A stretch of 64,000 bases of DNA. Origin: Verrucomicrobiota bacterium. Lineage in GTDB: Bacteria; Verrucomicrobiota; Lentisphaeria; JABSQK01; JAJFLO01. Numbering within the stretch: position 1 is the first letter of the stretch; every line of letters starts with the position of its first letter. The notes below the pieces were generated by a model. The model made no database searches. It saw nothing but the letters and a program-made list of their open reading frames with translations, and was not told where the DNA came from. The DNA is taken from positions 9,338-73,337 of the forward strand of contig JAJFLQ010000029.1 in the NCBI GenBank assembly GCA_021772615.1, read 5' to 3'. The position numbers and the translations under genes were made by a program. Below, piece after piece: positions 9,966 through 64,000 of the stretch.

Positions 9966-10343
9966 GTACCAACCCGGAACACGAAGGGCACGGCTTTCAC
10001 GGTTCAGTTTTAACACCGTCCAGGGCAAATGCAACGTTGGTTGCACGATCTCGAATCGACGTGTCCAGGCCGTGGCATGGCCGGCACAGTAGTCCGCCAA
10101 CGGCTTTGCCGTGACAAAATCCGGCGGAATAAGTTTGACGCAGTTGACGGGCTTGGTATGGTAAGGCCGCTCGTGACGGCCGGCGCGCTGTATTCGCGAT
10201 GGTTTGCGTGGCATCAACAACATGGCGTTGCTTCCGTAACGTATGCTGGAGAGAACACCGCGTCGCGTGCGTCGTACCTTTGCGTGCCGTACCGCGAAAC
10301 AGGGGACAGGGGAGAATTTTCGGGTGAACATCGGGTTTCGTAA

Positions 10344-32100: not shown

Positions 32101-33131
32101 TCGTGATCCGCACCAATGCGGGCGACGTGCCGGTGAGCCTCAGCGGCACCAGCGTTGAAAGCAATATCGCCGTGACCCCGAACAGTCTCTTCGAAGTCCT
32201 TGGATTCGGGCAGACATCGATCCGCGCTCTCAATATTTCGAATACGGGTAACGGCGCCCTGACCTGGACGTTTCCCGCGGTCGACGAGAACGCCGCCGCG
32301 AACGGACTGCGGCTGGACGAAACCGCCGGGCACTTCAGTGTCCCCGCGATGGACGGTGTCGCGTTCGACGCACTCACCGTCGAAGCGTGGATCTATCCGC
32401 AACCGCAGCAGGACGAGACGTTCATCGTATCCCAGGCGTCCTCGACCGCACTGGCCGACGGATTCGCGTTGCACGCAGACCATGCATCGGCAATGCTGCG
32501 GTTCACGGTGAGCGGCACGTTGCTCGAAACATCGCTTGCGTTCCCGGAACAACGCTGGTCGCACGTTGCCGGGACATTCGACGGCGCGGCGATCCGGCTA
32601 TACGTCAACGGCCTGCAGGTCGGCGGGCCGCTGGCCCGGAATCAACCGGTCGAAGCGGCGCCGGCGCCGCTTGTTGTCGGCGCCGGACCGGATCTTTCCG
32701 GGAATTGGCGGGGGATGATCGATCAGGTTCGAATCTGGCATACCGCCCGCACGCCGGAGCAGTTAGCGGCGACGATGCGAGTAGCTGCCGTCGGCGCTTC
32801 CGCTGAACTGGCCGGTTACTGGACATTTGACGAGAACGGCGACGACAGCTCCGGGCTCGCGCGACACGGCGTCTTCAGCGGCGGCGCCGCGATCCTCCCG
32901 TCGGCGGCGCCGCTGGGCAATCAGTGGTTCTCGGTGTCGAGCCGGGCCGGATCGGTGCCGCCCGGCGAGACCGTCGTCGTCCACGCCGTCTTCCGCACCC
33001 TCGGCAATACCATTCGATTTTCGCGGAGCCTGGTGATTCGTTCAAACGACCCGCAGACGCCGCAGCTGGTCATACCGGTTTCACTGGACGTCGAGAATCT
33101 CGATGCGATTTGCGAAGAACATTTTTTTTAA
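23172..33131 (+). CDS. Large secreted Ig-array protein (many ASH/choice-of-anchor-D and BACON-like domains) with 5 LamG domains and 3 GDEIGVFDG modules
   Basis: 3,319-aa ORF with signal peptide. Repeated xxFGxVxxG...TxxNxG..PL...SNDPD units. LamG-like domains at about 24380, 25985, 28200, 29455 and 32305 (T(L/V)EAW...W.H.A...DEVRIW). Confidence 0.9.
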   Translation: MTRRLPISCWCTLMSMLVAVAAPAQSVPPAFTPVAPTGLPYSVIVSGVTLNDEPLTADAQIGVFDGDLCVGAATIGNAGQIVITTWKGDDALAIPGFVAGNAIGFRIRTSWFSEIQTFEGAATVLEGGDSFGDGHFSLVAVAVTTTLAPEVSVNPVRLEFGQTDLGIAVTREFTVANDGDAILQVPAIVTDHLYYLVSPTSMTLAPTESQTVTVTFNPAAAGGFSAHVTVHSDDPGTPAATVDLVGIGLPPPRPELAILNDTVTFGQVAAGRSRTRDIRLANQGNADLVIHSITSNGSSFSVGAPTSFTMPSKSSRSAPITYAPSAAGQHSATITINSNDGAAAIAVSGEATPGHFADIPTTGIGGYSIIIDRVDLNKKSWFEPGDEIGVFDGETLVGVGGVGNALQLDGIDDHVQVADSNAFDLPGAVTIECRIRAGSVDDGVAGIIGKGRNYGLFLHPDRRLELVYRNGAGREVRIESTAGALPADQWHHIAGVIDVAASTMTIYVDGAPVASGVAPENMTTNSDPLTIGAASNNVSQQFLPGLVDEVRVWNVARSQADIDTNKAMSIRQNQSGLVASWTFDDGTLRSSVSGQYTGTFAGGARLAATNALPHNNVIFVWQRHEGLGLDGYTPGNPISFRLWSNLFGVFEELDAAPEFIIGDGHFGTGTLSVVRLSAVSDSEPNIAVDIDSLYLGQLPIHESVTSTVSITNSGNTPLTILSISETSTVFSLTHQSATVQPDETLDVIATFSPVVPGTHGTTMTIVSNDPDEPVIDVDLSGFGLPAGRAEISLSTASVNFGGVVIGESETKIFRIANTGTAPLTVTGISSGDPSFVATPNAFTLTNTNDVQDVSVVFSPGQRRSFSDILSITSNADTRSLAVTGIGFDGHFPAAVETGLPYQIVIDNTTLNEFLTSGDEIGVYDGDRIVGRGVVPLFGNSLSLDGNGDLVDVADDNVLDGMLHLTLEAWVYLNNTGHQGIIRKQNSYALSIRNGTIQYGPGTQWTWFNTGIVPPTGRWFHIAAVWDGQVEKFFIDGKKRGSTLNFTDGAIPDTAGPVHIGFDDNGWYLNGLIDDVRVWNVIRSEDEIHDNMNRELTGLESGLVGYWKFNGDALDHTPFQNHGVQADNAMPFGPPAIQAFESLQVVSWERIDESADDGFTPGNPIGFKVWTTINGYPSEFDAVGQFSAGDGTFGYGRYAVAQLTVATPQLTVTPTELFNPIEEPASVARTLTVENTGDETLVYDIILRFTDPASPPATWLEVSQTSGTLEPGVSETIDVTLSTAGLNDGLYQAELEFTGNTPTPEPVVVPVRINVTGNPQIDVSDAAIAFGSVEVGQSASRTLTISNIGTDALDITAIDVQDGAILTLDHPGDLPIALEPAATLAVTVVFAPAAAGDITDRIAIASNAENAPTLEVPVTGTGLTPPDLTIATTAWSGTYDADTVNADSITFSNEGQSPVDFTISGAVPWLAVTPTASTMIAAGESLDVALSISTIGLVTGTYTGSLTVASNDPDEPEIALSFTLTVVGAPRLAVADSLDFPATAVGAERELPLTLANTGSDTLLVSSVTVSHPVFSVDFEPTLSIAPGTSSAVPVVFTPAADGNFQGILEITSNSADAASHQIALRGAGFRPPDIAVSPESIALTLPTGTQDTVDLTVSNTGSFPLTYEIAPEASGKTALSLDRAGEFVKVRHHPSLDIEDALTLEAWINLRTGQDQVIVAKESDAIGPWRLWVNGGGNLEFQLNVNRRVTSAEVVPVDQWTHVAATFDGAALRLYIDGELSNEAVYPLFSINRNNDDLRIGRAHDGTAFDGLIDELRIWNRTRDPSEIQALRNQSLKGTEDGLVLYFTFDSDGGNAAVDTSLQGNNGTYFGGAARTASTAPINAFLVVTPLGGAVEPAMTATITVEIDSAGLASNLYSTSLSILSDDPDESVVAVPISLTVTGQGLVRTEPTQLDFPDTAAGITTTASLTVFNDGSDALNIFDWELDSAAFATSASPLTILPFSSRSLTVFFTPTAAGLHEDILTIVSDASNTDRLTVALSGTGTEPATIAVAPASIDAALDFDQSTIDTLDITNTGGSVLDYSIVAGQTTIGGRGLRFLDGVAEVANPGGFDAQTLTVEAWVRPEHADNDEIPAVFVRADRFNAQIFALRMWTGSIAGSTAGAGYEVVVNNVGSGPIPFPFAAGQWVHLALAFSVETAVLYVNGSPVLSLPKTLLSYADADAFMIGNDPTGNRAFTGAVDEVRIWSATRSAAELNAGRTAPLTGDEDGLVAYYPFTGGLVNDRYVIDASPRNNLLAVSGDVVISTQSPAPVATAAGAWLGADPSTGAVAAGLSQSQSITIDATGLHFGSHADRLIVISNDAANGVIDIPVTLTVSAPRVELSTTGIDFGDIAIGAQNTRTLNVWNTGNRPLIITGYTLLDAADFTHDGAADATLAPDEQLSLAIVFAPGSLGTFTDRLTISTNIGDHDIALLGISHVPLPDIRVEPTELNVETAENTVLSRFITITNDGEADLTADVAAARSWISIDPASAEIMPTLSRLVTVDIDTTGILPGDYAETLEITSNDLDAPTILVPITIDVGPDPELQLGQSEVAVTLSFGGTTTVQLDINNTGAGSLGYTLTESVDWLSIGDPTGIVPGNSSASVGIAVAAGALRGGHHDAVIIIDSNAGNVTVPVRLSVAEPALADNLPPAVTVKLFPDETDTATIAVSNEGLAPLNLDLTGFASTGWLTIDTPQRVVAPGATDSVILEFNTEGQEEGSRLSAVVQITHDDPGRISPIALTANLDVYRFARFSAADVNQDVGYQPGETITLTAALTAPNGSQTVTVTSELTDAANASLAVVTDTVNLAPGSANGLTTALAIPESGVAHGIAQLVVVASDTDRGVVQDTQTIDVPVGVPVPEVSEDTIDFSDILAGAAASRELTISNTGDLTLTPALSPLTPPYSATLSSDRVAPGDTAAVTVTFAPTVTGDFTAQLVIRTNAGDVPVSLSGTSVESNIAVTPNSLFEVLGFGQTSIRALNISNTGNGALTWTFPAVDENAAANGLRLDETAGHFSVPAMDGVAFDALTVEAWIYPQPQQDETFIVSQASSTALADGFALHADHASAMLRFTVSGTLLETSLAFPEQRWSHVAGTFDGAAIRLYVNGLQVGGPLARNQPVEAAPAPLVVGAGPDLSGNWRGMIDQVRIWHTARTPEQLAATMRVAAVGASAELAGYWTFDENGDDSSGLARHGVFSGGAAILPSAAPLGNQWFSVSSRAGSVPPGETVVVHAVFRTLGNTIRFSRSLVIRSNDPQTPQLVIPVSLDVENLDAICEEHFF

Positions 33132-36100
33132 CCCACACGTCAGGCACATATTGCGTATTGTACTCACATTTCTTATCGCCGCGCTGATTGCCGGCCACAC
33201 GGCGACAGCCACGATCAATCGAATTGACCTGCCCGCGGCGCCGCAGGCAGGCGACATCGATATCGATGTGTCGACCACCATGGCGCCGTCCGACACCGGC
33301 GAACTCGTCCAGACGCGCGTCACGGTCGCCGAACTCGACGCGTATCTGGCAACGGCGAACCGATCGACGGCGGCGGGATCGGATTTGGTCAACCGACAGG
33401 TGTTCGCCGCATTGCGGACGGCTATGCTGCACGCGGATGTGATCGAGCTGGAACACACCACCGACGCGACTTCCGACACGCTCGAATTCACGGCGCCGTT
33501 GACAACGCCGCTGACGGCGCGCTCGCTGATTCTGATCGAGACATCAACGGCCCCGGCGACCGATCCCGACGACGACTATGCCGAGGCCGCGCGTTTATTT
33601 ACCGTCGACCGAACCGCACCGTTCATTTCCGAGCTGTCCGTGTTTCGCGTCGCAACCGACTACAGCTTTGCCGCCACCGCCGAGATATCCGGCAACAGCG
33701 ATATTGCCTCGGTCTCGTTCCGGCTGATCGCGGCGCCGCCGTCGGTCCTGATCCGCGAGTCCGGCGTCCTGTCGACGCTCGACCACGTGTTCACCGGCCC
33801 GGAGGTTCAGCATATCACCGCGGCGGCGCCGGATCAGCGTACGTTTTCGACGGTTCACCACCTCCGCGACGACGCCCGGCTCGCACGCGAGGACATCCTC
33901 ATCCTGCTGACAACCGTTACCGATCAATTCGGCAATGTCCGGACCCAATCCGAACTGTTCCCGGCAAACGATCTCGTGCCCGTGGATATTTCCGGTATTA
34001 CCGTGATGCCGGCGTCGATTTCGCTTGGCGGCTTCGGGGACGACGTCGACCTTCACGTTTTCGGGTCACTCGACGATCAGGGTCAGGTCGAGCTGTCGAC
34101 GGACAACGGCCTGGTCCTGACCAGCCTGAATCACGACATCGCCCTGGTCGACGCAAACGGCACGGTGTCCGGCGTCCTCGCGGGCACGACCGCGATCCAC
34201 ATCGATTATGCAGGGTTCGAGCACACCGTCGATGTCATCGTCGACGGCGAGATCGAGCTGGACGCCGTTCGTGTCGGTGCGCCGGTAGTCGAACTCGACG
34301 CGGTGGGCGACCGGTTTCAGCTCAACGTGACTGGTGTGCTGTCGAACGGCAACGAGATCGACCTGGTTGCCGGCGGCTACCCACTGGCGTTCATCGCCGC
34401 GACACCGGATGTAGTGACGATCTCGAACGCCGGCCTCGTCACCGGCGCGCAACCCGGCGCAACCGAGGTCACGGTAAACTGTCCGTACTTCCCGGCTCTG
34501 TCGACGTCGTTCACCGTGCACGTCGCCGACGGCCCGCCCGAGATCGAACTGAGCGCAAACCGGCGCAGCGTCCCCGAAGACCAGGAGATCCGGGTCACTG
34601 CCGACGTCAGCGACGACATCGGCCCCGAAGGCATCGCCGCCGTGGTCTTCGTCGTCGACGACATTCCGATCTTCACCGACACCACGTTCCCGTACGACAT
34701 CACGATCCGCGCGCCCGAGCGCCGGGCCGGGACGCTGCTGCGCATTTCCGCGATTGTCACCGATCAGGCCGGCAACGCCGTTACCGCAACACCGCTGCGA
34801 ATCCCCGTGACAGCGCCGCTCGATACATCGACACACGCATCCGGCGCGTTGCGTTTCTACACCCCGGACGACGAAAACGCGTATCAGCAATTGCTGTCAC
34901 TCGAGGGCAAGTCAGGCTACACCATCGACGCCGACCCCGTGGTTCTCGGCGGCAACTTCGTCGCCGGCACGCTGCTCGATCTGCGCGTCATCGTCGATGC
35001 CGGCCAGTTTGATCGGATGGAGCTGCTGGTCAACGGCACGCGCGTCGCCAGTGAGACGCGCTCGAGACCGCTGATAGCGCGACCGCCCGGCACGACGCCG
35101 GGCGCTGCCGCGTTGGTCCTCGCCGAGGCGAGTTATTCCCTGTCCACCGTCATCCCGACGCGCGAAGTCGGGCGGACCATGATCGTGATCGCGCGCGGAT
35201 TCCGCAACGGCAAACACCTGGACTCACCAGCCGGCATCATCCAGGTCGTCGCCGACCGGCCGCCGCGCGTCGCGATCACGTCGCACCTCGACGGCGCCGC
35301 GGTGCGCGACGGCACGGATCACGTGATCACGGCCACGGTGACGGACGACCTGATGAACCACGGCGCCTTTGTCGAATTTTTTATCAACGAACAGTCGGTG
35401 CTCGTCACCGACGACCGCGTGTCGAGCGTCGCCAACGACAGCGCGCCCGAAGCGTTCGGGAGCCGGCCCTACCGCTACACGCTCACCATCCCCGAGAACT
35501 CGCTTGGCGAGACCTACGATATCCGTGCCGTCGCGATGGATAAGGCCGGCCACTTCGAGAGTTCCGAGACGGTGACGCTGATCGTTCAGCCGAACGCGCC
35601 GCCACAGCTTGAGATTGTCGCGCCGTTGCCCAACTCGGAATGGGTCGCGGGAAGTGTCCTGACCATCAACGCGAACGTCACTGACGACGGCCGCTTCGGC
35701 CCGGTCAGTTACTATGTGAACGACGAGCGCGTCGCGGTCAACACCGCCGGCGTACCGGCATCGTTCCGAATCGCCGCCGATCGGGCGGGCGACGACCTCG
35801 TGATTGCAGCCGAAGTGACCGATGACAACGGGTTGCAGGACCGCGACGAGGTGCTTGTGAGCGTGATCGGCGACGACATTCCGCCGGCTGTCGCGATTGC
35901 CGTTCCTCACGATCAATCAACCGTGGTCGAGACGCGGAACATTGCCTTTGTCGCAGGCGGTTTCGACAATCTGGGGATCGCACGTGTAGCATTCTTTGTC
36001 AATGGCGGTGATGAACCGTTTCATACCGCCACGGCCGATGAAATCATGCAGAATTCCGACAAGACCTTCATCGTCAATGCCGTCTACGACCACACCCGTT

Positions 36101-39100
36101 ACGTTGCCGGCGACCGGCTCGTATTTGCCGCCGTCGCGACAGACGTGTCGGGCAACACGTCGCGCAGCTCACAGGTCGTTGTCGACGTGGTCGCCGAAGA
36201 CATCGCGCCGGTGGCGATCGACATCGTTTTTCCGCGGGACGGTGCGTCGTACTACCACGGTCAGAGCGTCGATATCTTTACCAGTACGCCGCTTACCGCG
36301 CGAATCGTCCACGTGGATTTCTACTTCGACGCGAACCCGCCTGAAACCGAACCGGTCACGACCGACATGCAAAAGCCGTACCAGTTCGCACATGTGCTGC
36401 CGGATGCGGATGAAAACCGGAGTTACGCGATCACCGTTGTCGCCACCGATGTCGACGGCCGCACCGCGTCCGATACGATCACGGTCAACGCACTGGTCGA
36501 CGATATCATCCCCGAGGTCGCGATTCACCACCCGTTCGAATCGTCTCTGCTGATCGAGGGACGGCCGTTGGAAATCGTCGCGGTCGCCACGGACAACATC
36601 GGCGTTGACCGCGTCGCGTTTTTCGCCGACGGCGATCTGATCGGAACCGACGGGACAGGAGAATTGGAAGACGCGATTTTCACCCGATTTTCGATGGGAT
36701 GGACGTTGCCGCTCCTCAATGACGGAGAGAAAGCGCGTGATGTCGTCCTGACGGCACGGGCGTGGGACAGTAACGAAAATGTCAGCGTCGACTACGACAT
36801 CACCATAGCGGTCCGTGATGATTCACCGCCGGTTGTCGAGATTATTGAACCGTTTCCAAACCGCAGTTTTTTTATCGGCCAGACCTTCTCCGTGCAGGCG
36901 ATTGTGAGCGACGACGTCGGTGTGGACACGGTCACGTTTTATTCCGGCGGCGTCGAGATCGATTCACACGCGCTCGCCGGCGCGGTCCAGGAAACCGTCG
37001 GCATCGGCAATGTCCCAACACCGGCCGCGGACAATGCAATCATCCGGGTCGAGGTGACGGACACGACGGGACAGACGGCCTTCACCGAGATCCCCGTAAA
37101 CGTCGTACCCGATATCGAACCACCGACGTGCCGCATCACACGGCCGATCAGCGGTCTCGAGGTGCTCGATACCGATCGTATCCAGATCACCGTCGCCACA
37201 AGTGACAATCAGGCCGTGGCCGACATTGAGTTACTCGTGGACGGCGCCTCGCTTGACCCGCCGCTCTTCCTGACGCGGTCCCCGAAATTTCATACCGAGA
37301 CCGTGCTCGTGCCGAATTCCGAGACCTTCGGGCAATTGGTCCAGGAAGTCATTCGTTACGAAACATTCACCGGATCGTTCGCGATCCCGGACGACGCCGT
37401 GAATACCGATCTGGAAATTTCCGCGGCTGCCCGGGACTTCGGCGCGAACCGAACGGTTTCCATCCCGATCATCATTCACGTGGTGCCCGACCTTGTACCG
37501 CCATTCGTCCGTATTACCGCACCGAAGAGCAGCGATCGCATCTTCGCGACACATCCCGATGCAGAGGATCCGCGGGTGTTGACAATTGGCGTGGCGGCCA
37601 CGGACAACGTCCACGTACAGGAGGTCTTTGCAACGGTGCGATTTGGAGATGATGAGCCAATCGAGCTGAACCAGACCCGGTCCATCGAATTGCCGGTGCT
37701 CGAATCGGCCACGACCGTTACGATTACGGCGTCGGCAACGGACGACAACGGCAATCTCGGCATAGCCATACCGGTGGCCGTGACCGTGCTGCCCGCACCC
37801 GAATCAGATCCCGGAGGAGGAGGAGGAGGTAACGGCGGCGGAGGAAGTGAGCCGGTCGATCAACCGCCGACCGTGTCGATCGCGTCGCCTGCGGACGACC
37901 GAATATTCTACGAAACCGAGACCTACGGATTCACGGTGAACGCCCGGGACGACCTGGGGGTCGCTGCGCTCAACGCCTTTCAGTCCGATCTGGAACCGGC
38001 AACGCCGGATCCGGTCGGGCACGCGGCGTCCTGGTACTTGCCGGATTACTTCGTGCTGCAATATCTCGAGGCGCTGACGGTTAATCAGGCCGACGGCGCA
38101 CGGGAACTGACGGTGTCGCACGGCCTGTCCGCCTTCGGCAAAAACGTGGTAACAACCGCACTGACGCCGGGCGGCCTCGATGCCGACTCCCGCGACTTTG
38201 ACCTCGTGTTCGACATGTATGCGGGCGCTGTCGGCGCGACCCTCGATTACACCATCGATGCGACCATGGAAGATGGATCCGTGGTCGAAGTCGTGACCGA
38301 TACATTCACGTTTACGACCGACGAACTCAGCGCCGCGACGACGATCGCCCTCCCCTACGACACCGTGCAGTTCGCTGTCATTGCCACGCTGCACAAAGGC
38401 GGACAGGTGCTGCCCATGCCTGTCGCCGAACTGATCGTTCATCTGGATAACGCGGACGGCGCCGACATCGACATCGTCACCGATCCGACACATGCCGTTC
38501 GGATCATGCCGCAACGTCGAACAGTCACGAACACCGTCCTCGTCCCCGGCGGGCACGTGACCGACGCGTTCGACTTTCCCGACGAAATCGTGCCGACGAG
38601 CGGCCTTCCCAAACGCCGCTATTATCTTGCCGAAGCCACCGATACGGCCGATACACCGCATAGTGTATTCACCGAACCGGTTGCCGTGGTCTGGAAAAAG
38701 GACTTCGAGGCGCCGCGTATCGCGATCGACCATCCGCCGCGACACACGCTGATCGAGGGCACGTCGTTGCCGCTGACGCTGACGATGTCCGATCAGATGG
38801 GACTGGCGTCGGCCGTGCTGTTCTTTAACGGGCGACGCCATCAGTCGTATGAGCTGAGCGGTCTCAGCGCGACGTTGCAGGAGGTGATTCCGATTCCCGA
38901 AGACGCGGCGGACGACATCTGGCAGTTTCAGGTTGTGGTTTCCGATATTTTCGGCAATACAACGCAGTCGCCGCTGCTCGAGTTCGTAATACTTGACGAC
39001 CAACCGCCGTCGATCAATATCAACCGGGTATCAAACATCTGGTCCGGAGCTACGGCGATCAATGCATACAACGCGGTCTCCGGGATCGAGGTGCTGGAGG

Positions 39101-42100
39101 GCACCCGTGTTTCATTGGCCATATCCGCGTCCGACGACGTCAATCCCTCGCCCGACGTTCGCGTGTACATGGGCGATTCCGAGCTGATCCCATCCGGCGG
39201 CAGCAGTTATCACTGGGATGTGCCGATCGGCTCGGCGGGCCGGGATTTCACGATCGTGGCAACCGCGACCGACGACCGCGGTCAGACCGCCGAGTCGTTT
39301 GCGTTTCTGCGTGCGGTCAATGACCTTGCACCGTTCGTCACCATGGTGGCGCCGGGAATTGACCAACCACTGACGGCAGGGCGGCTGCTGGTTCGCATGC
39401 GCGCCGTTGCGGTCGACAACATTGATGTCAGCACGATCCGCTTCTACATCAACGATCAGGAATTCGCCCGACGGACCAACCTGGCGACGGTGCAGGTCAA
39501 CGTCGAACAGGCGCCGGTGCCGTTCGACCAGGCGACCACCCTGGGTATCGCCGAGTTCCCCGAGGAATACCAGTCGGTTGCCGCCGACGGCTATCGTGTC
39601 GTCAGTGCGTCATCCGACATCCGCATCCCGGTAGGGCTTCTCGACGACGTGACCGAGGTGAAGATGGGCGTTCGCGTCGAGGACAATTTCGGCAACGCAT
39701 ATTACGATTTTCGCATGGTCCAGGTGACCCCGGACAATTTGCGGCCGCGGATCCGTTTTATCGCGCCGGCGCTTGATCGCGATTTTATCGAAGGCACGGC
39801 GATGAACATGGCAATGTCCGCAGGTGACGACAGCTATGTACGCGAGGTGAGGATCTGGAATCATGTTGTGGTCCCGGACCTGGAATCCCAGGACTTCATC
39901 GCCGACGGCGCCGAGTTGTTGTATTCAAATTCGCGATTTCCGCTGAATGATCATGCAATCGCCTCGACGAACCTGGTGGATATACCGGAAATCGAATTCG
40001 AGGTGCGCCTGCCGACCCTGGCGGAATTGGGCATTACCGATGTCGAGCGCGTCCCGTTTAACCAGTTTACCGGGGGCACCCGGGAACGGGTGTACTACGG
40101 TGCCGAGGTCACTGATGCATCGGGCAACGTCACGCGAGGGTGGTCGTTCTACAGTATCATCACCGACAACGCCCCGATAATCGACCTGCTTACGCCGCTT
40201 CCGAATTCCTATTACCCCGAGGGCTCGCTGGTGCCGATTCATGCGCAGGTAGCCGACGATGTCTTTGTCGACTCGGTCGACTTTATCATCAACGGTGAGA
40301 TCCGGCACACGGATACAACAGCGCCGTTCAACTGGGCATACCAGGTTCCCGCCGAGATCGGCGACGACACGTTCACCGTAGCCGCGCGTGCGGTCGACAG
40401 TTTCGGCAACGTCAGCAATGAGCCGGAGATCATCGTTCATACCCGCAATGACTATCCGCCGACCGTGTCGATCAGTAACCCGACCAACGGCCGGCAACTC
40501 TACGAAGGTCGCGACCTGCTGATCCAGGCATCGGCGGGCGACGACATCGCCGTGACGTCGGTCACGTTTATGATCGACGGCGTGCCTGTGCTGACCGACC
40601 TGTCGTACCCGTATGAAATGTCGTGGAACGTGCCCTTTGATCGCGTCGGCACGTCCGTGATCATCGGTGCGTCCGCGGTCGATACCGCCGGGCAGGTCAC
40701 ACTGTCCGATCAGAACCGTGTCCACATCATACGCGACGACGAGGCGCCAACCGTTGCCATTGAGGAACCAGCGGATTTCTCGGGAATCATTGCCGGCAAT
40801 TCGGTTGAGGTGCGCGCCACTGCGCTTGATAACGTCTTCGTGTCATCGGTAGCCTTCTATCTCAACAACAGCCCGGCGCCGTTTCACGTGAATCTGGCGG
40901 CGCCGTACGCCTTTACATTGCCGATTCCGCCGGAGGCCGAAGGGCAGGCGTGGACCATCACCGCGATCGCGACCGATACCGCCGGGAACGACTCCGAACC
41001 GCGTACGGTCACGGTTAACGTGGTGCGCGACCTGCCGCCGGTGGTATCGCTGTTGGCGCCGCCGGAGACGGGTGCGTCCGTCGTCGAGGGCGAGATCTAC
41101 GTGGTATCCGCGATTGCCGACGACGACATCGACGTGGTCTATACCGAATTCTTCATCGACGACCGCTCGGTTGCGGTCGATTACGTGTTGCCGTATAATT
41201 TCCCCTTCGAGGTTCCGCTCGACGCGGACGGCAATGTGTATCGCATCCACGCCGTAGCTGTGGACACGTCGGGACAGGAAACGGCCACCCCGATCCACGA
41301 GCTGTCGGTCGTTGCCGATCAGCCGCCAAGCGTGGAACTCGACCTGCCGTTCCCGGGCACACTGGTATTTGACGGCGATGTCGTGCCGCTCCAGGCCCAC
41401 GCCGTCGACGACATCGGGATCGAGCGCGTGGCATTCTACGTCAACGGCCGGCCGACGGACGTCACGTTCAACAGCGGCGGCCAACTGGGTGAGTTCGATG
41501 CCGACGCCGTGTTCCGCGGCGAATTCATCGCGCCGGTCGGGTCCGAGGGAAATCTGTTCGAAATCTATGCGGTCGCGTACGACACACGCGGGCATGTCGC
41601 CCGATCGGAGAGCGTACGAATCGGAAAAATCCGGGACACGACGCCGCCGGAGATTACGTTGTTCTACCCCGCCGACGGTGAGATCGTGACCGAGGGCGTC
41701 GATATCGAGGTCAAGGCCAACGTCGTCGACCTCACCGGTGTCGATGAAGTGACGTTCTTCGTCGACGATGAGCCCGTGTTCACCGACTACGCACCTGCGC
41801 CCGACGATACCGTCACGCCCTACGGCATGCGCTTCAAGGTGCCGGTCGGCCGCGCCGGTGAGTTTGTCCGATTCCGCGCCCAGGCCGTCGATCCGTCGGG
41901 TAATATCGGGTTTTCACAGGAGGTCGAGATTGAACTCGGCATGGCCACTTTGGGTTCACTGGTCCAAACCAGTCAAGCGCGAAAACCTATTCCGACAATC
42001 GATGTTCAGCAGCGTGGGAGCCTGACCTATACCGTGACCAACACCACGATCGGCGGCAAGAAGGCGTGGCTTCTGGACATTGTCGATACCGTGTCCAGGC

Positions 42101-54100: not shown

Positions 54101-57100
54101 CCGACACCGACAACACCATGACGATGGTGACGTCCCGCGACAACCGGCGCCATCTTGAACGCCGGCTGCTGCATACCGAGGCGTTGCCGCTCGAGGACGG
54201 CGTGGAGCTGCCGGCCGGATATCGCTCGCTGTCGTTCTACAGCCGGCTGCTGGCCGCACCGGGTCCGGCCGGAATCTCGGTGATCCCCCTGGATCACCCG
54301 GAGGACACGGTCACCATCGCCGGCGATTACACCGCTGTAGCCGTACGGACGGGAATTCTGTTTGCGGCGCGATCGAACCGCATCGACGTTTGGGATCTCG
54401 GCGATATCGGGAATCCCGAATTCAAGACCGAGATCCGGCTCACGGACCACATCGTCGAACTCCATGAATTCGACGGGCTGATTTATGCCGGCAGCGGGTC
54501 CCGAATCATCACCGCGGAGACGCCGTTCACGTATATTTCCGGTAAGACGCCGGTGCACGCCGCCGCAACCGCTCCGGAAACGACGCCGTTGGTATTCGGT
54601 TTCCCGGCGTTGTCACCGGCGGAACATCGAATCGCGTCCGCATTCTCGATGCGCCTCAACGACGCCGACATCGGCTTCTCGCGGTCCGCGACCGACCACC
54701 AGGTCCAACTCACGCCCGCCCCGTCGTTAATACCCGGCGACCGGCTGGTCGTTGAACTGCAATCCGCGGACGGCGCACTCATCGGCGACGAACTCAGAGC
54801 GACGGTGGTCACGGACGTGATCGTAGCCGAGACGCCTGCCGCCTCGGCGCTGACCGTCACCGGCATTGCACCACGATCGCTGGTCGATAACGGCGAGCCC
54901 GCCGCCATCGTCATCAGCGGCAGCGGATTCGCGACCGTCGAGAGCATTCTGGTCGGCGGGATTGAGGCCATTGTCGACTTCCGCGACGACACGGAATTCC
55001 AGATTACCGTTCTCCCAACAACCACGTTGGCCGGCATTACCCTGATCGATCGGGTCGACGGTCAGGATGTGCCGGTGCACGCCGGCTACCTGAACGTTGT
55101 CGAATCACTGGAAATTTCATCGTTGGCGCCGACGACCATCGGCTACACCGGCGGCATCTCCGGTTTCATCGCCGGCGCCGGTTTCAGTCGGGACATGCGC
55201 CTGTTCCTGAACGATGTCGCAACCTCGATCGAAGGTTTTGCCGGTACGGACGCCGTGCGATTCGTCATACCGGCCGGGGAATCGGACATCACCCTGCGCC
55301 TCGAGAAGCCCGGCGCGACGCCGGTCGTGCTGGAGGACGCGATTGTGCGCGTGGACAATGTGCCGCCGCGAATCGTCGGCGATATCGAGCCGGCGGATCG
55401 TATCGGCATCCCGGTCAGCGCGACCTTCGCCGTGACGTTTTCCGAACCGATTGACATCAACGATTTCGACCTGTTTCGTCCGCTGCGACTCACGGACGCG
55501 TCCGGCAATGAGATTCCGACCGAGCCGTATTTCTGGGATTTCAATGATACCCGAGTTGAACTGGTGCCGATGGACCTGCTGAGTTCGGCGACGCTGATCG
55601 ATCTTCATTTTGACGGGGCCGTCGATCTCGCAGGCAACGTCCTCGGTGGGATCGCGGCGCGACGATACAGCACGGTGGATGACGGCGATCCGACGATCGC
55701 GTTGATCGCCCCGCAGGACCAGATGCCGGTGCAATCGGAAAGCGTCATTCTGCTTCAGGCCACCGTTGCCGACAACCTCCAGGACGTACATGTCGGCAGC
55801 ACTCACCTCGGCGTGTCGGCACACAACATTCAATTCTTTGTGAACAACATCCTCGTCGACGAAACGGTCCGCATCACCGACGGCGTTGCCGAGGCGCCGT
55901 ATACCACGCCGGCGGTGGCTTTCGAAACGATGCTGACCATCCACGCCGTCGCTGAAGACGCCGCCCGCAATACCGCGGAAACGACACCGGTCGAGATCAC
56001 CGTGCTGCCGATCCAGGCCCCGACACTTGCATTCATTGCGCCGACTCCCGACGACAACAGTGTCATCGGTGAATTCGGCCGGTTTACCGTCGCGGTCGAC
56101 GCGCACTCCGACCGGGGCATTGACCGTGTCGCGCTGTACATCGACGCTGTGCTTGCGGCCACATCGAACGCGGCATCAGCGGTGTTCTCCGGGCTGTCGG
56201 CGCCGCCGAACGGGCCGGGTCACGTTTTCAACGTGGACGCGATTGCCTATGACCGGAACGGTCTGGCGTCGGCCCCAATTCGACGCACCTACACGATCGG
56301 GCCGGAGATGGAACCGCCGACGCTGGTGATGCTGACGCCGGAGGAAGACGGCGGCGTGCTCGAAGGCTTGCCGTTGCGGATCGAACTCGACGCAAGTGAT
56401 AACAAGGGGATCGCTCAGGTCGCCATCTACGAGATCCTTGACGGACAGGAGACACTGATTCGACAGCTGACTGGAACGCCGTGGACGGCGTCGATAGCGA
56501 CGCCGCTGGTCGACCATGACGAGACACGGACCATCCGGGCAGTCGCCGTAGACGTGACGGGCCTGGAGACATCCGTCGTCCGTAATGTACTCACCTGGAA
56601 CGATACCACTGCGCCGACGGTCGCGATCACGGCGCCGGACCACGGAAGCCGCTACGACGAAGACCAGCTCGTGAACGTGACGGTCGAAGCTGCCGACAAC
56701 GGCGCTGTACAACAGGTCACGCTGACGACGCCGTCGGGGGAATTGACCGATGACCGGCCGCCGTACCGGTTCTCATTCGCCATGCCGCTCACCAGCATTT
56801 CCGCGAGGACCATCGAAATTTCGGCCGTTGCCGCGGACCGCGCCGGGAACCTGTCGCGACAGGCATCGATCGACCTCGTCTCCCTGGACAGGACCGGTGC
56901 GGTGGTGTCCACGCCGATTGCCGTGACGCCTGCGCGCGATCCCCAACCGAGTGGAGCGTTCATTACCGTTGATGCCTCGATCGACACGTTTTATCACTTC
57001 AATCCGCTGTTCGACGACGACGTCGCATGGCAGGATTCCACGGTCACACTGGTCCACGACGGCAATGTGGTTCGTTCCGCACGGTACGGCAGTGTGCTTT

Positions 57101-60100
57101 CATGGCAGCTCCCCGCGGTCAACGTTGCGACGACGATGTCGATCCATACGATGCTGGTCACGAGCGACGGCAATGCCATTGAGAACGAACTCGCGTTGAC
57201 CGTTGCACCGCTCGCAATTGTGATGACGACGGCGGAACCGCACACGGTCGCCCCGGACACACGCAAACGACTGCACGTTACCGGGGTCTGGAACGCCCCG
57301 GCAACGGTCAACATCCTGGTCGACGGGACAGTGATTGCAACGCTCGAAGACGAGCCGTTTGTGTACGACTTTCCCGTACCGGACATGGATGCGGGCCAAC
57401 AAATCACACTGTCCGCTCGGCTCCTCGACGGCGGCGGCGCGCAGATCGACGGGGATCCGTTGATATTGACGATCGGTGACGACACAACCCCGCCGCAGAT
57501 CGTCGCGCTCGACGCTCCGGCGTCCGCGATCGAGGGAACGCCCGTTACCGTGCGGATCACTGCCGCGGACGATGTTGCGATCGATCATGTCAGGCTCACG
57601 ATCAACGGCGACGCGCTGGTGCTGCCGGCGGATGACGCGACGCCGGTCGACAGCCCGGACACGGAGGCCGCGGCGCTTGCGTTCACGACAACCTATGATC
57701 TGCCGGCGCTTACGGACATCGCCGACGGGGCGGTCGGGTTCGACGCGGTCGCCGTTGACACCGGCGGCAACGAGTCGGCGATCGCGAACGGCGCCATATC
57801 GGTCCTGGTGGATCCGTCGCCGCTCGCCCCGTCGATTGTATCAATCGAACAGCCGCTCCCGGGAACATCGTTTATCGAAGGTACGACCATCGCCGTGCGC
57901 GGCGCCGCCGAAGACACGGACGGGACGGTCGCCGCCGTCGTCATCGCGTTGGCGTCCGGGCAATCGCATCAAGCCGGCGTCGTCGCCGGCGCCTTTTCGT
58001 ACGACCTTCCGCTGCCGGTTGCCGATGGGTTTACGCCGCTGCTGCTGACCGTCACGGCGATTGACAACGGAGGGAACCTGTCGGCGCCGGTGGAGGTGTC
58101 GATCAATCTGGTCGACGACGTCGAAAAGCCGGCGGCATCGCTGATTGTCAGTCCGTCGCCTGCCGTGGCTGCCGGCACGCGTCTGCAACTCGACGCGCAG
58201 ATTACCGACAACGTCGCGGTTCAGCAGCTTGAACTGCGCGTGGTCGATGGAAACGGCGTGGTGTTTGCTGAAATGCCGGACCTGGCGGAGCAGCGATTGG
58301 CGGCATTCGCGTACAGCCGCGACGTTGCCGTACCGGCTGCAGCCGCAGGCGACGCGTTGGAAATAACGTTGACGGTAACGGATGTCGCAGGAAACTCGAC
58401 GCGGACGACCCGGCGCCTTGACGTGATGCCCGGACTGCACCTGGCCGGGCACACGTGGAAGCTGCAGCAGACCGAGTCGCTGCGTGCGTTAATGCGGGAC
58501 CGCGGTACGGTCTATGGTGTTTATGACGTACAGCGCCCGGACCGGCCGGACGAATCGTTCGTGGTTGCCTTTGATGACGCTGCGCCGGTACGCGATATTC
58601 GGTCGATCATCGGCGTGCCCGCACCGGTAACCGCGCTGGCTGCGGCATGCGATCACCTCTATGCCTTCACGGCAACCGGTGAAGTCTTCATCTACGACGG
58701 CTCGGCGCCGGATACGCTGAGTCCGCGGACCTCCGTGGACATCGGGACGGTGTTCACCGGAGTCGCGACGGCGGGCGGCGCCGGACTTGTTGCGTACAAT
58801 CGAGACCAGGTCTGCCGGATCGATCTTGGAGACTGTCTGGATCCGGTCATCGAACGGACCGCGGCGGTCACCGGCGTCGACCGTGTCGAAGTCGTCGGCG
58901 ACACCGTATATGTAGCGGCCGGCAGTGTGTTGAAACTGCTTGATTACCTGACGCTGTCACCGGTGCGCCAGATCCCGGTTTCCGCGACGGCGGGACTGGT
59001 TTTCAACCGGACCGGATTCTGGGCGGCGGGCGATCGCGCCATCCGATTTGTCGCTGACGGATTTCCCTACGGCGCCGTCGATGATCCGATACGGTATCCG
59101 GGCCCGGCACTCAACCTGCCGACGCCGGTTGTTGCCGTGCTGCCGATTGCGCCGACGTTGGTCGGCGTGGTGCTCGACGATCGTGTCGTTGTGGTCGGCT
59201 TCGGCGATCGTTACACGTTGCGTTCGTACGGAACCATAATGTTGGAAAAAACGGCCGCGTCAGCGATCCTCACCGGAGACGGCGACATCCTGATCGCCCT
59301 GCCCGACGGCGAGATGACGCGGATCGACATCGCGTTGCCCGATATCGACGCCGCGCCTGACGTGGACCTCGAGTTGACCGGACTGGCGCAGGACATCGCC
59401 ATCATCAATTCAACCGCCGTCGTGGCGCAGGGATTGTTCGGGATGTCGGTTATCGATCTGTCGCTGCCGCAATTTCCGGAGGTGATCGGGACGTTTCAAT
59501 CCGACGGTCTCGTGCTCTCCCTCGATGTTCTCGGCGACGCGATTTACGTTGCGAACGGCTTTGCCGGCGTCACCCGGACACGCCTGTCCAACGGCGGCGG
59601 CACGCTGACCGGACCCGCGGCACGGGTGCAGGGCGGTGCGCGCAAGGTGGCGGCGGGAACCCGCTGCGTGACCGTGCTCGGCGCCGGCATTACCGTCCTC
59701 GATCCGGTGTCGCTGGACGTGCAATCAACGGTTGCGGTCGGCGGCACGCCAATCGACATCTCCATGAGCGGCGACATCCTGGCAATCGCTATGGCCGGCG
59801 GCAACTGCCTGATCTATTCCGTGGAGGCACCGGCGACACCGACATTGCTCGCATCCTTCGCTGCGGGAGTCGATGTTTCATCCGTGTACCTGGCCGGCTC
59901 GCAACTGTACCTCGGGATCCTCAATCCGGATCTCGTCAGCTGGGACATCGACGTATATGATCTGGACGATCCGCCGGCGCCGCGGTTCTCGCACATGCTG
60001 AATGCGGCGCCGTTGCCGTCACCGATTGAATCGATGCGCGTGTTGGGTAACGAGCTGTACGCCTTCGCGGGCGCCGGCGGCGTGCTGAGATTCGACCGCG

Positions 60101-63100
60101 CCACCGGCGACGTGCGCGAATTGCCGTCTCGAGACTTTGCTTTTTCCGGTGCATTTCTGGGACAATTTCTCTATGTCGCCGATGGCTACGGCGGTCTCAA
60201 CGGCATCGCGATCGATCGCTCAGACACGGCGGCGGGCCTGTTCGTGTCAGCGCCGGCCCAGACATTCACGCTGCCGCAGGGCGGCGAGCGTGTGGTGGCG
60301 ATCGATGCCGGCGATCACTTCGGAATTGCCGGGGTCGCATTTTATCTCGACGACCAGTTGCAGTTCGAGGACACATCGTATCCGTACACCTTCGACCTTG
60401 CCGCGGCCGTGGACGATGCACCTGGCGTTGCCTACGAAGTACGGGCGGAGGTACGCAGCCGGCGCGGCGGCCACGCGACCATGGCGGGCCCGGTGACGGC
60501 ATTCGTTGCGCCGCAAATCGATGCGCAACCGCCCACGCTGGCGGAGGTCTCGGCGCCGGCAACGGTTAGCGAAGGCGACGTCATCGAGATATCCGTCGAC
60601 GCAACGGATAACCTCGGGAACCCGCTGGTTGAACTTTACGTCAACGGCTTTCTCGTCGCCGTCGATGCGACGCCGCCTTATGAATTCGCGTACCTTGCAC
60701 CGCAGGTGCATCAGGACGCCGACCTGACCGTGCTTGTCACGGCCGCCGACGCCGCGGGCAATACCGCGCGTGATTCATCCGTCGTCCGCGTGATCAATCA
60801 GCTGCTGCCGCCGGCGGCGCCGGTTTTCACCGCGCCGATCGACGGCGCCGACGTCGTCCAGGGCGCCCCGATACGGATCGCAATCGCGACGCCCGGGAAT
60901 CAACCGGCAGCTGCGGCCCGATTCTACATCAACAATGTTCTTGCCGCGGAGGACCGTCAGGCGCCCTACCAATTTTTCTACGCACCGCCGGAGACCACAA
61001 CGGCTGATATCATGATCTCCGCCGGTTTCGTGAATTTCGCAGGCCAGGCCGGGCAAATTTCGACCATCACGGTGCATCCCGTCAGCGATCGCCGGCCGAC
61101 GGTTGCCTTTACCCATCCGACCCCGAGCAGTGCGTTTGTGGGCGGCGCCGGTATCCCGGTTTCGATTGACGCGACCGATGATATCGCGGTGGAAAGCATC
61201 CGGATTTCACTGGACGGCCGTCACATCAGGACGTTGGACGGAACGGTATCGACGTTTGATCTGCAGCTTGCCCCGGTGGATACGCCGGAATCGCATACCC
61301 TGACCGCGGTCGCCGCGGACAACCGCGGCCAGACGGCATCGGCACAGGTTACGTTCGACGTCGTGCCCGACCAGCCGCCCGTCATTGCCAATGCCGTTCC
61401 CGCCGACCGCAGCGAACGTCTGCGCGGACTTGACATCGTCGTCGAGGCCGACGTGACGGACGATGTCGCGGTGGAGCGGGTCGAGTTCTATCGCGACAAC
61501 ACCCTGGTCGCCACCGTTCCGGCGCCCGCCGTCGATGATCGATACACCGCGATCATGACGATTCCATTTGATCACGCCGCCGACGCGCTTGATCTCACGC
61601 TGGTCGCCTACGACCAGGTCGGCAATCACAGCACGCTGCAGCACACCATCTTCCTGGCAACCGGTGCGGCGCCGGCGGTTGATATTCTGTCGGCGACATC
61701 GGCAACGGCGTTCATCGAAAACACCGCGGTGAGCCTCCTGATCCGGGCCGCGTCGCCGTACCCGATCGACGACATCACCCTGTTTCTGGATGGTGCGCCG
61801 GTCGCAACAACGTCGAACCCGCTCGGCGACGGTACCTTCTCGACGTCCCTGTTGCTCCCGGCGATCACCGGCGCCGAACAATCCATCGCGATCGACGCCG
61901 GGGCCCGCGACGCCCACGGGCAGACGGGGGTTTCTTCAACAACCACGATTGTGGTCGTGGCGGATCAGCCGCCGAGCGGGTCCGTGTCGGTTATCCCACC
62001 GCATGGCGCCGGGATTGTCGAAGGCGATGCCGTGACCATTCGGGTTGCGGCGCAGGACGACCTGGCCGTCGCGGAAATCGTCGTGTTCGCCGAAGATGCG
62101 GAAGTGAATCGTCGCCAGGTGAGCGGAACCGGATCATTCGACTTCACGTGGACGGCGCCGGGTGTTCCGGAAGACGAGGATACGACGGCACTGACGATCT
62201 ACGCCGGGATCACAGACTCGGCCGGGCAATCGGCGACAACGGACTTGCTGTCGGTGACGATCCACCGCGACCAGCCGCCGAGTGCGGCGCTGCTCAGTCC
62301 GCTGCCGGGCGCCGAGGTGGTTGGCGGATCATTGCTGCCGGTCGTGGTTCAGGTCGACGACGACAAGGCGGTCGCGGGCGTTGAGGTTTTCTTTGACGGC
62401 ATCGGCATTGGCGCGCTCAGCAGCATCGGCGACTCCCTGTACACGGGCAACGTCCGAATTCCCGGCGCACCGGCCGGACATGAGGGCGTATTGCTGGTGC
62501 GGGCCGTTGATCAGAAGGATCAGATTGGCGTATCGGGCGGCGTTCCCGTGCGCATTGTGTTTTCCGCGGGCGTCGCTGCGGAGATTCCGGGCAACGAGGC
62601 GGCGCGAATCGTTGCGATCGGTGATGACGTCCTGCTTGCCGGCCGCGGCGGTGGGCGCGTTATCGGTATCGATTATGATAACGGCCTGACGCCGGCCGGC
62701 GACACGGTCACTCTCAACCGGCCATCACACGAATCCATCGTCGTCATCGGTGTCGATCCCGTGGTGACCGAGGGCGTCAGACTGGACGTTCTGGAATCCT
62801 TCGCGGCGGATACGGATTACCTGCTGGCGGAGATTGCGTTCATCGATGCAGCCGGGTCGGTGGTCCGTCCACAGCTCCTGGGCGCGTCGTCACAGGATCC
62901 CGAAAATCCCGTTGCGATGCTCACCGACGGCGTCCCGGATCCCGGGACGGCGGCGCCGTACGGCACGTACGACAGTCTGCTGACGGCGAACGGCTTCAGT
63001 CCTTCGGAGCCGGGGGCGTCGTTTATCACCTTTATTTTCGCCGAGCCGGTGGAGATTGCCGAAATTCGCCTGTTCCAATTCGCTCATGACCGCCGCCGTG

Positions 63101-64000: not shown

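Follow-up and report, generated by a model that had tools for sequence, protein, structure and literature searches.

We uncovered in an uncultured Lentisphaeria genome a genuine, intact and complete single bacterial gene for a protein of 11,996 aa. We consider it fairly probable that this protein is exported through Sec and forms an extended adhesin of a non-RTX type or a fiber of the matrix; if expressed and located as we presume, it would serve in a biofilm as a tether at the cell surface or in the matrix. The window, i.e., the entire 64,000-nt stretch analyzed, corresponds to positions 9338-73337 of contig C127 (100,695 bp, without N), and the gene occupies 42440-78430 of that contig (35,991 nt). 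When ORFs are listed with open ends, frame 1 of the plus strand runs from the ATG at 33103 to the end of the window (33103..63999; 10,299 aa) without a stop, as an earlier note on this DNA had read it. The in-frame stop between 33103 and 64000 that the note allowed it might have overlooked is absent from frame 1, and following the frame past the window, as it had proposed, leads to a stop codon at contig positions 78428-78430 (window-equivalent 69091-69093, about 5 kb beyond the window), which completes the ORF. Its description of the gene as hidden from the ORF track reflects an artifact, because the default list applies a closed-ends rule and drops any ORF that leaves the window. Given the gene's own base composition, a stop-free run of 11,996 codons would arise by chance with P ~10^-147. 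The coding signal is uniform, with a GC3 of 0.73-0.82 and a GC2 of 0.42-0.48 across the gene in all 12 of its 3-kb bins, and the longest ORF in the other frames of its in-window part reaches 541 aa. The encoded protein has a mass of 1.27 MDa and a pI of 4.3 (D+E 1629 vs K+R 691), being very acidic and poor in lysine. Its parts and its upstream neighbor are the following:

23172..33131, plus strand: upstream gene for a 3319-aa protein with nine ASH/HYDIN-like Ig and five Laminin_G_3 domains (ORF list, Pfam).
33103..64000, plus strand: in-window part of the giant ORF, aa 1-10,299 of 11,996 (ORF listing; uniform GC3).
33103..33210, plus strand: signal-peptide-like N-terminus, aa 1-36 (Kyte-Doolittle scan, inspection by eye, paralog alignment).
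33211..34539, plus strand: N-terminal region, aa 37-479, 38% identical to the paralog (profile searches, alignment).
34540..41784, plus strand: Big_7 array I, aa 480-2894, 18 Big_7-like domains (Pfam and self-trained HMMs).
41788..43755, plus strand: supermodule 1, aa 2896-3551, predicted 7-bladed LVIVD propeller, Big_5, TIG and TIG (profiles, AF2 model, fold matches).
43756..45756, plus strand: supermodule 2, aa 3552-4218 (profile matches).
45757..47643, plus strand: supermodule 3, aa 4219-4847 (profile matches).
47644..49704, plus strand: supermodule 4, aa 4848-5534, with a single TIG only (profile matches).
49705..51852, plus strand: supermodule 5, aa 5535-6250 (profile matches).
51853..53589, plus strand: supermodule 6, aa 6251-6829 (profile matches).
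53590..55296, plus strand: supermodule 7, aa 6830-7398 (profile matches).
55354..55653, plus strand: eighth Big_5 domain, aa 7418-7517, outside the supermodules (Pfam).
55690..58266, plus strand: Big_7 array II, aa 7530-8388, seven Big_7-like domains (Pfam and self-trained HMMs).
58384..60096, plus strand: propeller-like region, aa 8428-8998, two partial matches (propeller HMM).
60247..62415, plus strand: Big_7 array III, aa 9049-9771, eight Big_7-like domains (self-trained HMMs).
63328..64000, plus strand: weak propeller-like region, aa 10076-10322, of which only the start lies in the window (propeller HMM).
Beyond the window, plus strand: Big_7 array IV, aa 10388-11143, six domains (profiles).
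Beyond the window, plus strand: two Laminin_G_3 stretches, the best at aa 11525-11676 (Pfam).
Beyond the window, plus strand: short right-handed β-helix of the pectate-lyase type, to aa 11996 (relatives).

Pfam families score above cut-off along the whole length of the protein, and Big_7, TIG, Big_5 and LVIVD all pass their curated gathering cut-offs: Big_7 with 368, 243 and 118 bits in three parts of the protein (cut-off 24.1), TIG with 154 and 122 bits (20.9), Big_5 with 68 and 83 bits (23.6) and LVIVD with 36-40 bits (20.2). At E<=0.01 there are 13, 10 and 6 Big_7 stretches over the three parts, and the union with self-trained HMMs yields 39 Big_7-like domains in four arrays (about 37 in the earlier note), with a period of ~96 aa in the regular part of array I. 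The domain census of the note holds for the remaining families too: the union gives its 14 IPT/TIG domains, its approximately eight Big_5 domains are located as seven within supermodules and the one at aa 7418-7517, its two Big_2-like domains find an echo in a weak Big_2 signal (30 bits on the N-terminal piece), and its nine or more propeller regions correspond to seven full LVIVD propellers and about three partial ones (propeller HMM matches at aa 8428-8650, 8707-8998 and 10076-10322). Near aa 337-402, the N-terminal region has a domain with a weak likeness to Big_2/TIG, and Atlas leads for this region, with scores of at most 0.83, are to Ig-like folds. Domain searches left aa 1385-1870 (within array I), ~7400-7417, 9772-10075 and 11144-11380 without an assigned family, and NCBIfam profiles on five segments lacking a domain assignment found nothing near any cut-off. 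As the note had maintained, no NRPS/PKS or RTX family is matched at Pfam E<=0.01 over the whole protein; a megasynthase was rejected in the absence of condensation, adenylation, KS, AT or carrier domains in the whole-length search.

The core of the protein is made up of seven diverged supermodules with the order propeller, Big_5, TIG, TIG. In the AF2 model of the first (pLDDT 75.9, pTM 0.76), residues 70-395 form 28 strands, and this supermodule is modeled as a 7-bladed propeller with Ig domains after it. The fold matches of the model comprise propellers and the ectodomains of plexin and MET; in the latter, which are the top Foldseek matches, a Sema propeller is likewise followed by IPT/TIG domains (E 5e-12 to 4e-10); however, sequence identity is 9-11% and the global TM is low (0.17-0.28). 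Moreover, the Sema propeller and PSI of plexin/MET contrast with a propeller that is LVIVD-type by Pfam and a Big_5 in the place of PSI. We therefore rejected membership in the plexin/semaphorin/MET family, the matches being at the level of the fold and the resemblance one of architecture rather than kinship. Full-text searches of the literature brought up no description of the propeller-Big_5-TIG-TIG architecture; such proteins may be listed in supplements to the papers on giant genes.

Could so long an ORF be something other than one functional gene, i.e., an assembly chimera, a silent relic or the source of several products from internal starts? We judge this highly improbable. The genome is a short-read MAG of 205 contigs, the single matching run is probably its source and the C-terminal domain is shortened, all of which give the idea some footing; against it stand the negligible probability of a stop-free frame, the uniform coding signal, the lack of DNA repeats that could mislead an assembler, the agreement of a separately assembled contig over 20 kb, and a paralog and distant homologs that retain the same order of parts. 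Misassembly of the locus is unlikely, because the longest exact internal repeat in the gene is 18 nt and a Logan contig of 47,503 bp, assembled from run X1, spans window positions 33001-53000 (20 kb) with 0 differences. Tiled BLAST queries gave no non-self DNA match within the gene with an HSP above 41 nt, and the domains of the protein are mutually 19-33% identical. Run X1, a biofilm metagenome, is probably the source sample of the MAG, and hence the Logan contig is an independent assembly rather than independent data. No RNA run is listed among those containing the sequence; run X2 has ~0.01 of the sequence words, and only pieces of 22-26 nt or 151 nt from it match the giant stretch, neither of which bears on expression either way.

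The protein is probably secreted, judging by its sequence. Its N-terminus has a basic stretch, a hydrophobic core at aa 19-31 and A-T-A before a conserved T/S-I-N; aa 13-38 form the sole strongly hydrophobic region (19-aa window) with the shape of a signal peptide. The signal peptide that the earlier note placed at ATG 33103 is thus signal-like by Kyte-Doolittle scan and by eye, and its position is kept in the alignment with the paralog. A low-confidence AF2 model of the N-terminal 480 aa from a two-row alignment (pLDDT 37, pTM 0.27) has a helix at 11-30, and all seven ORFs of at least 1,900 aa on the contig open with a similar hydrophobic segment by eye. At the other end, the note had looked to an anchor past the window; the completed C-terminus, ending in RTVLQRLLEE without a PEP motif or a hydrophobic tail, carries no recognized anchor or sorting signal, and LPxTG, PEP-CTERM and Por_Secre_tail are lacking from the whole protein in motif and Pfam searches. 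A halophile “acidic proteome” as the cause of the low pI was rejected by comparing net charge across ORF sizes, the median per residue being -0.010 for ORFs of 300-999 aa vs -0.078 for those of at least 2,000 aa.

A paralog in the same genome is collinear with the giant at 31-60% identity, has an open frame of no less than 12,551 aa and is preceded by a homolog of the 3319-aa partner, the giant genes that flank our gene on both sides having homologs there. That a frame has stayed open over such a length with the same flanks suggests that selection has acted to keep it. The ends of the two contigs carrying the paralog (C41 and C3) share no exact overlap of at least 15 nt, so we infer that it is one gene from collinearity only. 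The C-terminal β-helix of the giant is ~235 aa shorter than that of the paralog, and because of this its C-terminal end may be decaying; a tblastn search with the last 700 aa of the paralog against contig positions 76000-80000 found only the in-frame match, with no frameshifted remnant of the missing coils.

The end of the upstream 3319-aa gene overlaps the start of the giant by 29 nt, and the downstream neighbor, 9 nt away, encodes a 3467-aa Ig protein. Other neighbors encode a 1923-aa protein with three cohesins, a 391-aa protein with a dockerin and a 3843-aa protein with Beta_helix/NosD, a GH16-like stretch, LamG and fn3. This company raises the question of whether the cluster specifies an extracellular glycan-binding or -degrading assembly akin to a cellulosome, capturing polysaccharides with the giant as its lectin-rich backbone. 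The two LamG stretches and the pectate-lyase-type β-helix with which the giant terminates would suit this, as would Atlas leads to clusters with LamG and β-helix (with scores of at most 0.88, and so taken as leads only). However, the giant itself has no cohesin or dockerin match at E<=0.01 and no glycoside hydrolase or lyase family above cut-off, and its β-helix is truncated relative to the paralog; accordingly, we deem such an assembly unlikely. An identification of the giant as a cellulosome scaffoldin was rejected, with cohesin and dockerin present in the neighbors only.

Among known systems, the nearest in working principle to the extended fiber that we favor are the giant RTX adhesins, likewise single acidic polypeptides of more than 1 MDa acting as surface tethers (a role presumed here for the giant), with a long tandem Ig-like β-sandwich extender and ligand-binding domains toward one end. 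The giant has an extender of this kind in its 39 Big_7-like domains in four arrays, with LamG and β-helix at the C-terminus. It differs in that RTX adhesins have a C-terminal tandem block of GGxGxDxUx, whereas the giant has three scattered GGxGxD motifs (aa 309, 4099 and 5046), none near its C-terminus, and no Pfam match to HemolysinCabind. Further, RTX adhesins have a C-terminal T1SS signal and an N-terminal retention module with no cleavable Sec signal, in contrast to an N-terminus that appears Sec-type by hydropathy and by eye; and their repeats are near-identical, unlike those of the giant, which are highly diverged (19-33% identity) and interposed with seven propeller supermodules. Hence, RTX/T1SS adhesin membership was rejected for want of an RTX block or family and in view of the signal-like N-terminus. 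The likeness to a pilus drawn in the earlier note is a poor analogy; single-chain giant adhesins are the closest working analogs, and the concept is already known.

According to one preprint (West-Roberts et al. bioRxiv 10.1101/2023.11.21.568195), Verrucomicrobiota and Planctomycetota are among the groups in which proteins of at least 10,000 aa are “frequently detected”, and another paper (PMC11573180) lists Lentisphaerae among the bacterial phyla enriched in proteins >5,000 aa. At 11,996 aa and from a PVC-group genome, the giant exceeds the thresholds of both (at least 10,000 and at least 5,000 aa, respectively). Going by these two sources and PMC12057145, the huge PVC proteins share with it their length class, extracellular nature (predicted for the giant), multi-domain make-up and uncharacterized function, but the papers center on giants of Omnitrophota, whose features are lytic or transmembrane or whose sets of domains are different.

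Relatives with the same Pfam set (Big_5, TIG, Big_7, Big_2 and LVIVD), named as “IPT/TIG” or “Ig-like domain-containing protein, partial”, occur in Myxococcota, with 6-11 matches each to the supermodule profile; examples are Corallococcus sicarius RKH40976.1 (P0016), C. exiguus WP_172817642.1 (P0073), Myxococcus sp. AB025B (P0001) and M. virescens GEL71664.1 (P0025). Five of the 19 database relatives examined (P0016, P0018, P0073, P0001 and P0067) show collinearity with the giant along its first ~7,000-7,900 aa, whereas P0025 has its parts in another order. The Myxococcota proteins belong to a different phylum and are only 22-35% identical to the giant; most of their records are cut by contig ends, and none is characterized going by name. 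A search with the N-terminus of the giant found an ortholog in 0 of 30 relatives, and a propeller-plus-Big_5 query yielded no giant matches in 150 genomes of the class Lentisphaeria.

These named homologs come from predators (P0001 from a Myxococcus sp., and four of the ten relative clusters looked up bearing Corallococcus, Myxococcus or Myxococcota names), the contig also carries a 2185-aa ORF of the SpvB/TcdB_mid/RHS type, and bioRxiv 10.1101/2023.11.21.568195 and PMC12057145 propose a predatory role for the giants of Omnitrophota and of further lineages in the PVC group. The giant fiber and its neighbors might then serve contact-dependent predation or antagonism as a prey-contact or attack apparatus. 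We rate this as improbable, since the giant has no peptidase, lysozyme, lipase or toxin family at Pfam E<=0.01 and, with six of the clusters lacking an organism name, the link to Myxococcota may stem from how database entries are named. A bolder and quite unlikely proposal is that a three-gene cassette (a 3.3k-aa Ig/LamG protein, the 12k-aa propeller-Ig fiber and a 3.5k-aa Ig protein), present twice in the genome, shared with predatory Myxococcota and not found in the 150 sampled Lentisphaeria genomes, was gained by lateral transfer between phyla. It would build an undescribed Sec-dependent, non-RTX, multi-megadalton fiber with seven plexin-like propeller-IPT units as serial receptors for cells or polymer particles.

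Returning to the preferred adhesin or matrix fiber, the N-terminal signal-like segment would take the chain through Sec, and outside the cytoplasm it would form a long, mostly β-sandwich fiber, with the four Big_7 arrays (39 domains) as spacers. Candidate sites for ligands, probably glycans, are the seven supermodules, the further regions resembling propellers, the two LamG stretches and the short β-helix. By usual Ig-domain dimensions, ~62 Ig-like domains and 7-10 propellers would measure ~0.3 μm when fully extended, which makes the chain of hundreds of nm suggested in the earlier note plausible. The overlapping upstream gene (3319-aa Ig/LamG protein) and the downstream one (3467-aa Ig protein) may be expressed together with the giant, which by analogy to known single-chain giant adhesins could act as a biofilm tether. 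Export is favored by the signal-like stretch being confined to the N-terminus, the acidic pI, the LamG/β-helix relatives of the C-terminus and the origin of the sample from a biofilm.

The interpretation offered in the earlier note thus stands as regards a single uninterrupted gene with a signal-like start, the census and the exclusion of NRPS/PKS and RTX, and lacks support in its wording of “hidden” and “pilus”; the size class was already reported for Lentisphaerae and the PVC group. Giant surface proteins rich in Ig domains, and their enrichment in PVC bacteria, are in print, and the protein opens no new category; striking as its size is, such proteins are familiar from this bacterial group. 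It adds to the bacterial proteins of at least 10,000 aa a complete case from a little-studied class, which is well supported because of the independent contig, the lack of a repeat-driven assembly risk and the conserved paralog. Its diverged domains and duplicated cassette make it tractable for asking how such genes persist and what propeller-Ig supermodules bind. The giant is also one among many giant genes of its genome, in which ORFs of at least 2,000 aa hold 10.4% of the bases and those of at least 1,000 aa 19.9%; an RpoB fragment of this genome shares 65-80% identity with MAG records of Lentisphaerales/Lentisphaeria.

The open reading frame that starts with the ATG at window position 33103 is a real giant gene, which the earlier note described well: it had claimed more than 10,000 codons, and an ORF list that allows open ends indeed gives a frame (33103..63999, + strand, 10,299 aa) that is open to the window end. 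That note had suggested looking for the stop further along the carrying contig, C127 (100,695 bp, without N; the window being G000:C127:9338-73337), where the same frame closes at 78428-78430; the complete ORF (C127 42440-78430) thus encodes 11,996 aa, with a computed mass of 1,272 kDa and pI of 4.3. Several features mark it as coding: the probability of meeting no stop across 11,996 codons, from the gene's own base composition, is ~10^-147; GC3 is 0.73-0.82 in 12/12 bins of 3 kb; and the longest ORF in the competing frames of its in-window part does not exceed 541 aa. The supposed miss by the ORF track has a simpler cause. The default list leaves out ORFs that run off the window, and the giant is absent from it because it extends past the window end; hence, its absence reflects a listing rule, not biology.

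Exact repeats within the gene reach 18 nt at most, its only off-diagonal DNA match spans 41 nt, and its repeats at the protein level are 25-33% identical; the assembly is thus not at risk from collapsed or expanded repeats. A single public run contains the stretch, namely X1, a biofilm metagenome that is probably the source sample of the MAG. A Logan contig from this run (47,503 bp, depth ~9) shows 0 differences and 0 gaps against window 33001-53000, a comparison that covers 20 of the 36 kb of the gene; the assembly is independent, but the data behind it are the same.

The chain is organized as follows:

aa 1-36: signal-peptide-like segment
aa 37-479: conserved N-terminal region
aa 480-2894: Big_7 array I
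aa 2896-7398: seven supermodules (propeller, Big_5, TIG, TIG), with a single TIG in module 4
aa 7418-7517: eighth Big_5, C-terminal to the supermodules
thereafter, in order: Big_7 array II, propeller-like region, Big_7 array III, weak propeller-like region
final parts, in order: Big_7 array IV, two LamG domains, short right-handed beta-helix

Pfam supports Big_7 (13+10+6 stretches at E<=0.01), TIG (6+4 stretches), Big_5 (3+2 stretches) and LVIVD (36-40 bits versus a cut-off of 20.2), matches Big_2 weakly, and places two Laminin_G_3 stretches near the C-terminus, past the window end. HMMs trained on the giant's own sequence recover 39 Big_7-like and 14 TIG domains (each count the union of two seeds), seven Big_5 domains within the supermodules plus the one at aa 7418-7517, and seven full propellers, with partial propeller matches at aa 8428-8650, 8707-8998 and 10076-10322. 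The earlier tally of ~37 Big_7, 14 TIG, ~8 Big_5 and at least 9 propellers was thus essentially right (39, 14, 8, and 7 full plus 3 partial). The supermodules share 19-26% identity with one another. The AlphaFold model of module 1 (aa 2896-3551; pLDDT 75.9, pTM 0.76) has 28 strands in residues 70-395, which may be read as seven blades of four strands each; three beta-sandwich domains come after them. Foldseek aligns it to 7- and 8-bladed propellers with target-normalised TM of 0.56-0.65, and gives the best E-values to the plexin and MET ectodomains (identity 9-11%), in which, like in module 1, a propeller precedes IPT/TIG domains.

The same genome encodes a collinear paralog, which is interrupted by two contig ends and amounts to at least 12,551 aa: C41:10946-34081 (7,711 aa, cut by the end of the contig) parallels aa 1-7430 of the giant at 35-60% identity, and C3:3-14525 (4,840 aa, beginning at the contig end) parallels aa 7501-11800 at 31-44%. 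The two contig ends do not overlap by as much as 15 nt. The paralog likewise has seven supermodules, and is flanked both upstream and downstream by homologs of the giant's neighbour genes. That two copies keep ~12,000 codons open despite their divergence argues for function.

Among sampled Lentisphaeria, the giant's N-terminal 480 aa matched 0/30 relatives' genomes, and a propeller+Big_5 query matched four of 150 further genomes from the class (E<=1e-10), each match lying in an open frame 559-681 aa long; both sets are samples, and the negatives hold for these queries. A word-seeded search of public proteins of 5,500-17,500 aa gave 2 matches among 446 scored candidates. Searched against 1.84 billion representatives, the supermodule profile has 92,401 matches (E<=0.001), mostly TIG arrays, with 15 near-whole-module matches among the best 150. 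Five of the 19 relatives examined, P0016 (Corallococcus sicarius RKH40976.1), P0073 (C. exiguus WP_172817642.1), P0001 (Myxococcus sp. AB025B), P0018 and P0067, are collinear with the giant's first ~7,000-7,900 aa at 22-35% identity; the named relatives belong to Corallococcus, Myxococcus or Myxococcota, and their records are mostly marked partial. Relatives of the C-terminal 317 aa (6 matches among 8,000 scored candidates) carry Beta_helix, NosD and Pel9A-like families. This beta-helix (aa 11680-11996; locus L002 7477-8427) is ~235 aa shorter than in the paralog and outside homologs; the missing part includes a closing motif conserved in both, and no remnant of it was found, frameshifted or in other frames. 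What most deserves to be followed up is the three-gene cassette in its two copies, together with the homologs in another phylum.

ORFs of at least 1,900 aa, seven in number and 7/7 on the + strand, occupy ~90% of C127 (30,276 codons over 100,695 bp). They are given here with a smaller ORF that adjoins one of them:

locus L004 2307-8864 (on C127, upstream of the window), +: 2185 aa; SpvB, TcdB_toxin_midN (TcdB_mid), RHS repeat, FG-GAP, DUF6443
window 4194-9965, +: 1923 aa; 3 cohesin and 4 HYR stretches
window 10344-11519, adjoining the preceding: 391 aa; type I dockerin and CARDB domain
3843 aa, +: Beta_helix/NosD, LamG, fn3, GH16-like stretch
window 23172-33131, +: 3319 aa; ASH/HYDIN-like Ig, 5 Laminin_G_3 stretches, BACON_2
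11,996 aa, +: the giant
3467 aa, +: Glucodextran_B, Big_5, Big_6
3543 aa, +: no Pfam family in the first 297 aa, the part scanned

The last 29 nt of the 3319-aa gene are shared with the start of the giant, and 9 nt separate the giant's stop from the next gene's start; the giant may be co-expressed with both flanking giants. The 3319-aa protein, a bacterial Ig array of PapD/MSP-like type, matches many Ig families with eukaryotic names (ASH, HYDIN/CFA65/VesB-like, Cep192, TMEM131-like, MSP). The 2185-aa product can be described as an Rhs/Tc-type polymorphic-toxin-like protein, and the 1923-aa and 391-aa proteins are a possible cohesin-dockerin pair within the cluster. Separately, the C-terminal 200 aa of a 503-aa ORF (window 790-2301) score 37.8 bits (cut-off 25) against Gp38, a family of phage tail-fibre adhesins.

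The ORF of the giant is complete, conserved and filled with domains; it begins with a signal-like segment, and its product would be exported via Sec. Ig-like domains measure 4-5 nm each; with ~62 of them and its propellers, the protein would form an extended fibre about 0.3 um long, in which the Big_7 arrays would be spacers, and the propellers, LamG and beta-helix candidate binding sites. It does not qualify as an RTX adhesin and carries none of the known anchor signals, which suggests that it acts in the manner of the giant adhesins without belonging to their family. Giant single-chain Ig adhesins are established, such as the 1.5-MDa protein of Marinomonas. Predatory-weapon and cellulosome-like hypotheses are summarised in passages of PMC12057145; here, deployment in predation or as a polysaccharide scaffold would be variants of the adhesin-like view, which the data do not separate from it.

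The RpoB fragment of G000 is 65-80% identical to Lentisphaerales/Lentisphaeria MAG records. Lentisphaerae are listed among the bacterial phyla enriched in proteins >5,000 aa (PMC11573180), and proteins of at least 10,000 aa are described as a frequent find in PVC phyla, Verrucomicrobiota among them (West-Roberts et al., bioRxiv 10.1101/2023.11.21.568195). The size class and general kind of giant are thus already known; a literature search, with supplements outside its reach, found no papers describing this particular architecture. Within G000, 229 ORFs of at least 1,000 aa take up 19.9% of bases, 60 of at least 2,000 aa take up 10.4%, and five reach at least 10,000 aa (3/5 cut by contig ends). 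As a class, those of at least 2,000 aa have an acidic, lysine-poor composition (median K of 1.0% in the giants versus 3.2% in ORFs of 300-999 aa). Two further ORFs, of 15,171 aa (C163, cut) and 12,587 aa (C10, cut), match none of the other ORFs that reach 4,800 aa (E<=1e-20). A second giant family, unrelated to the 11,996-aa protein, is also present in two copies, ~46-47% identical: a complete 13,373-aa ORF (C100:3278-43399), and one divided between C200:18574-33105 (3' open) and C178:1-31416 (5' open).
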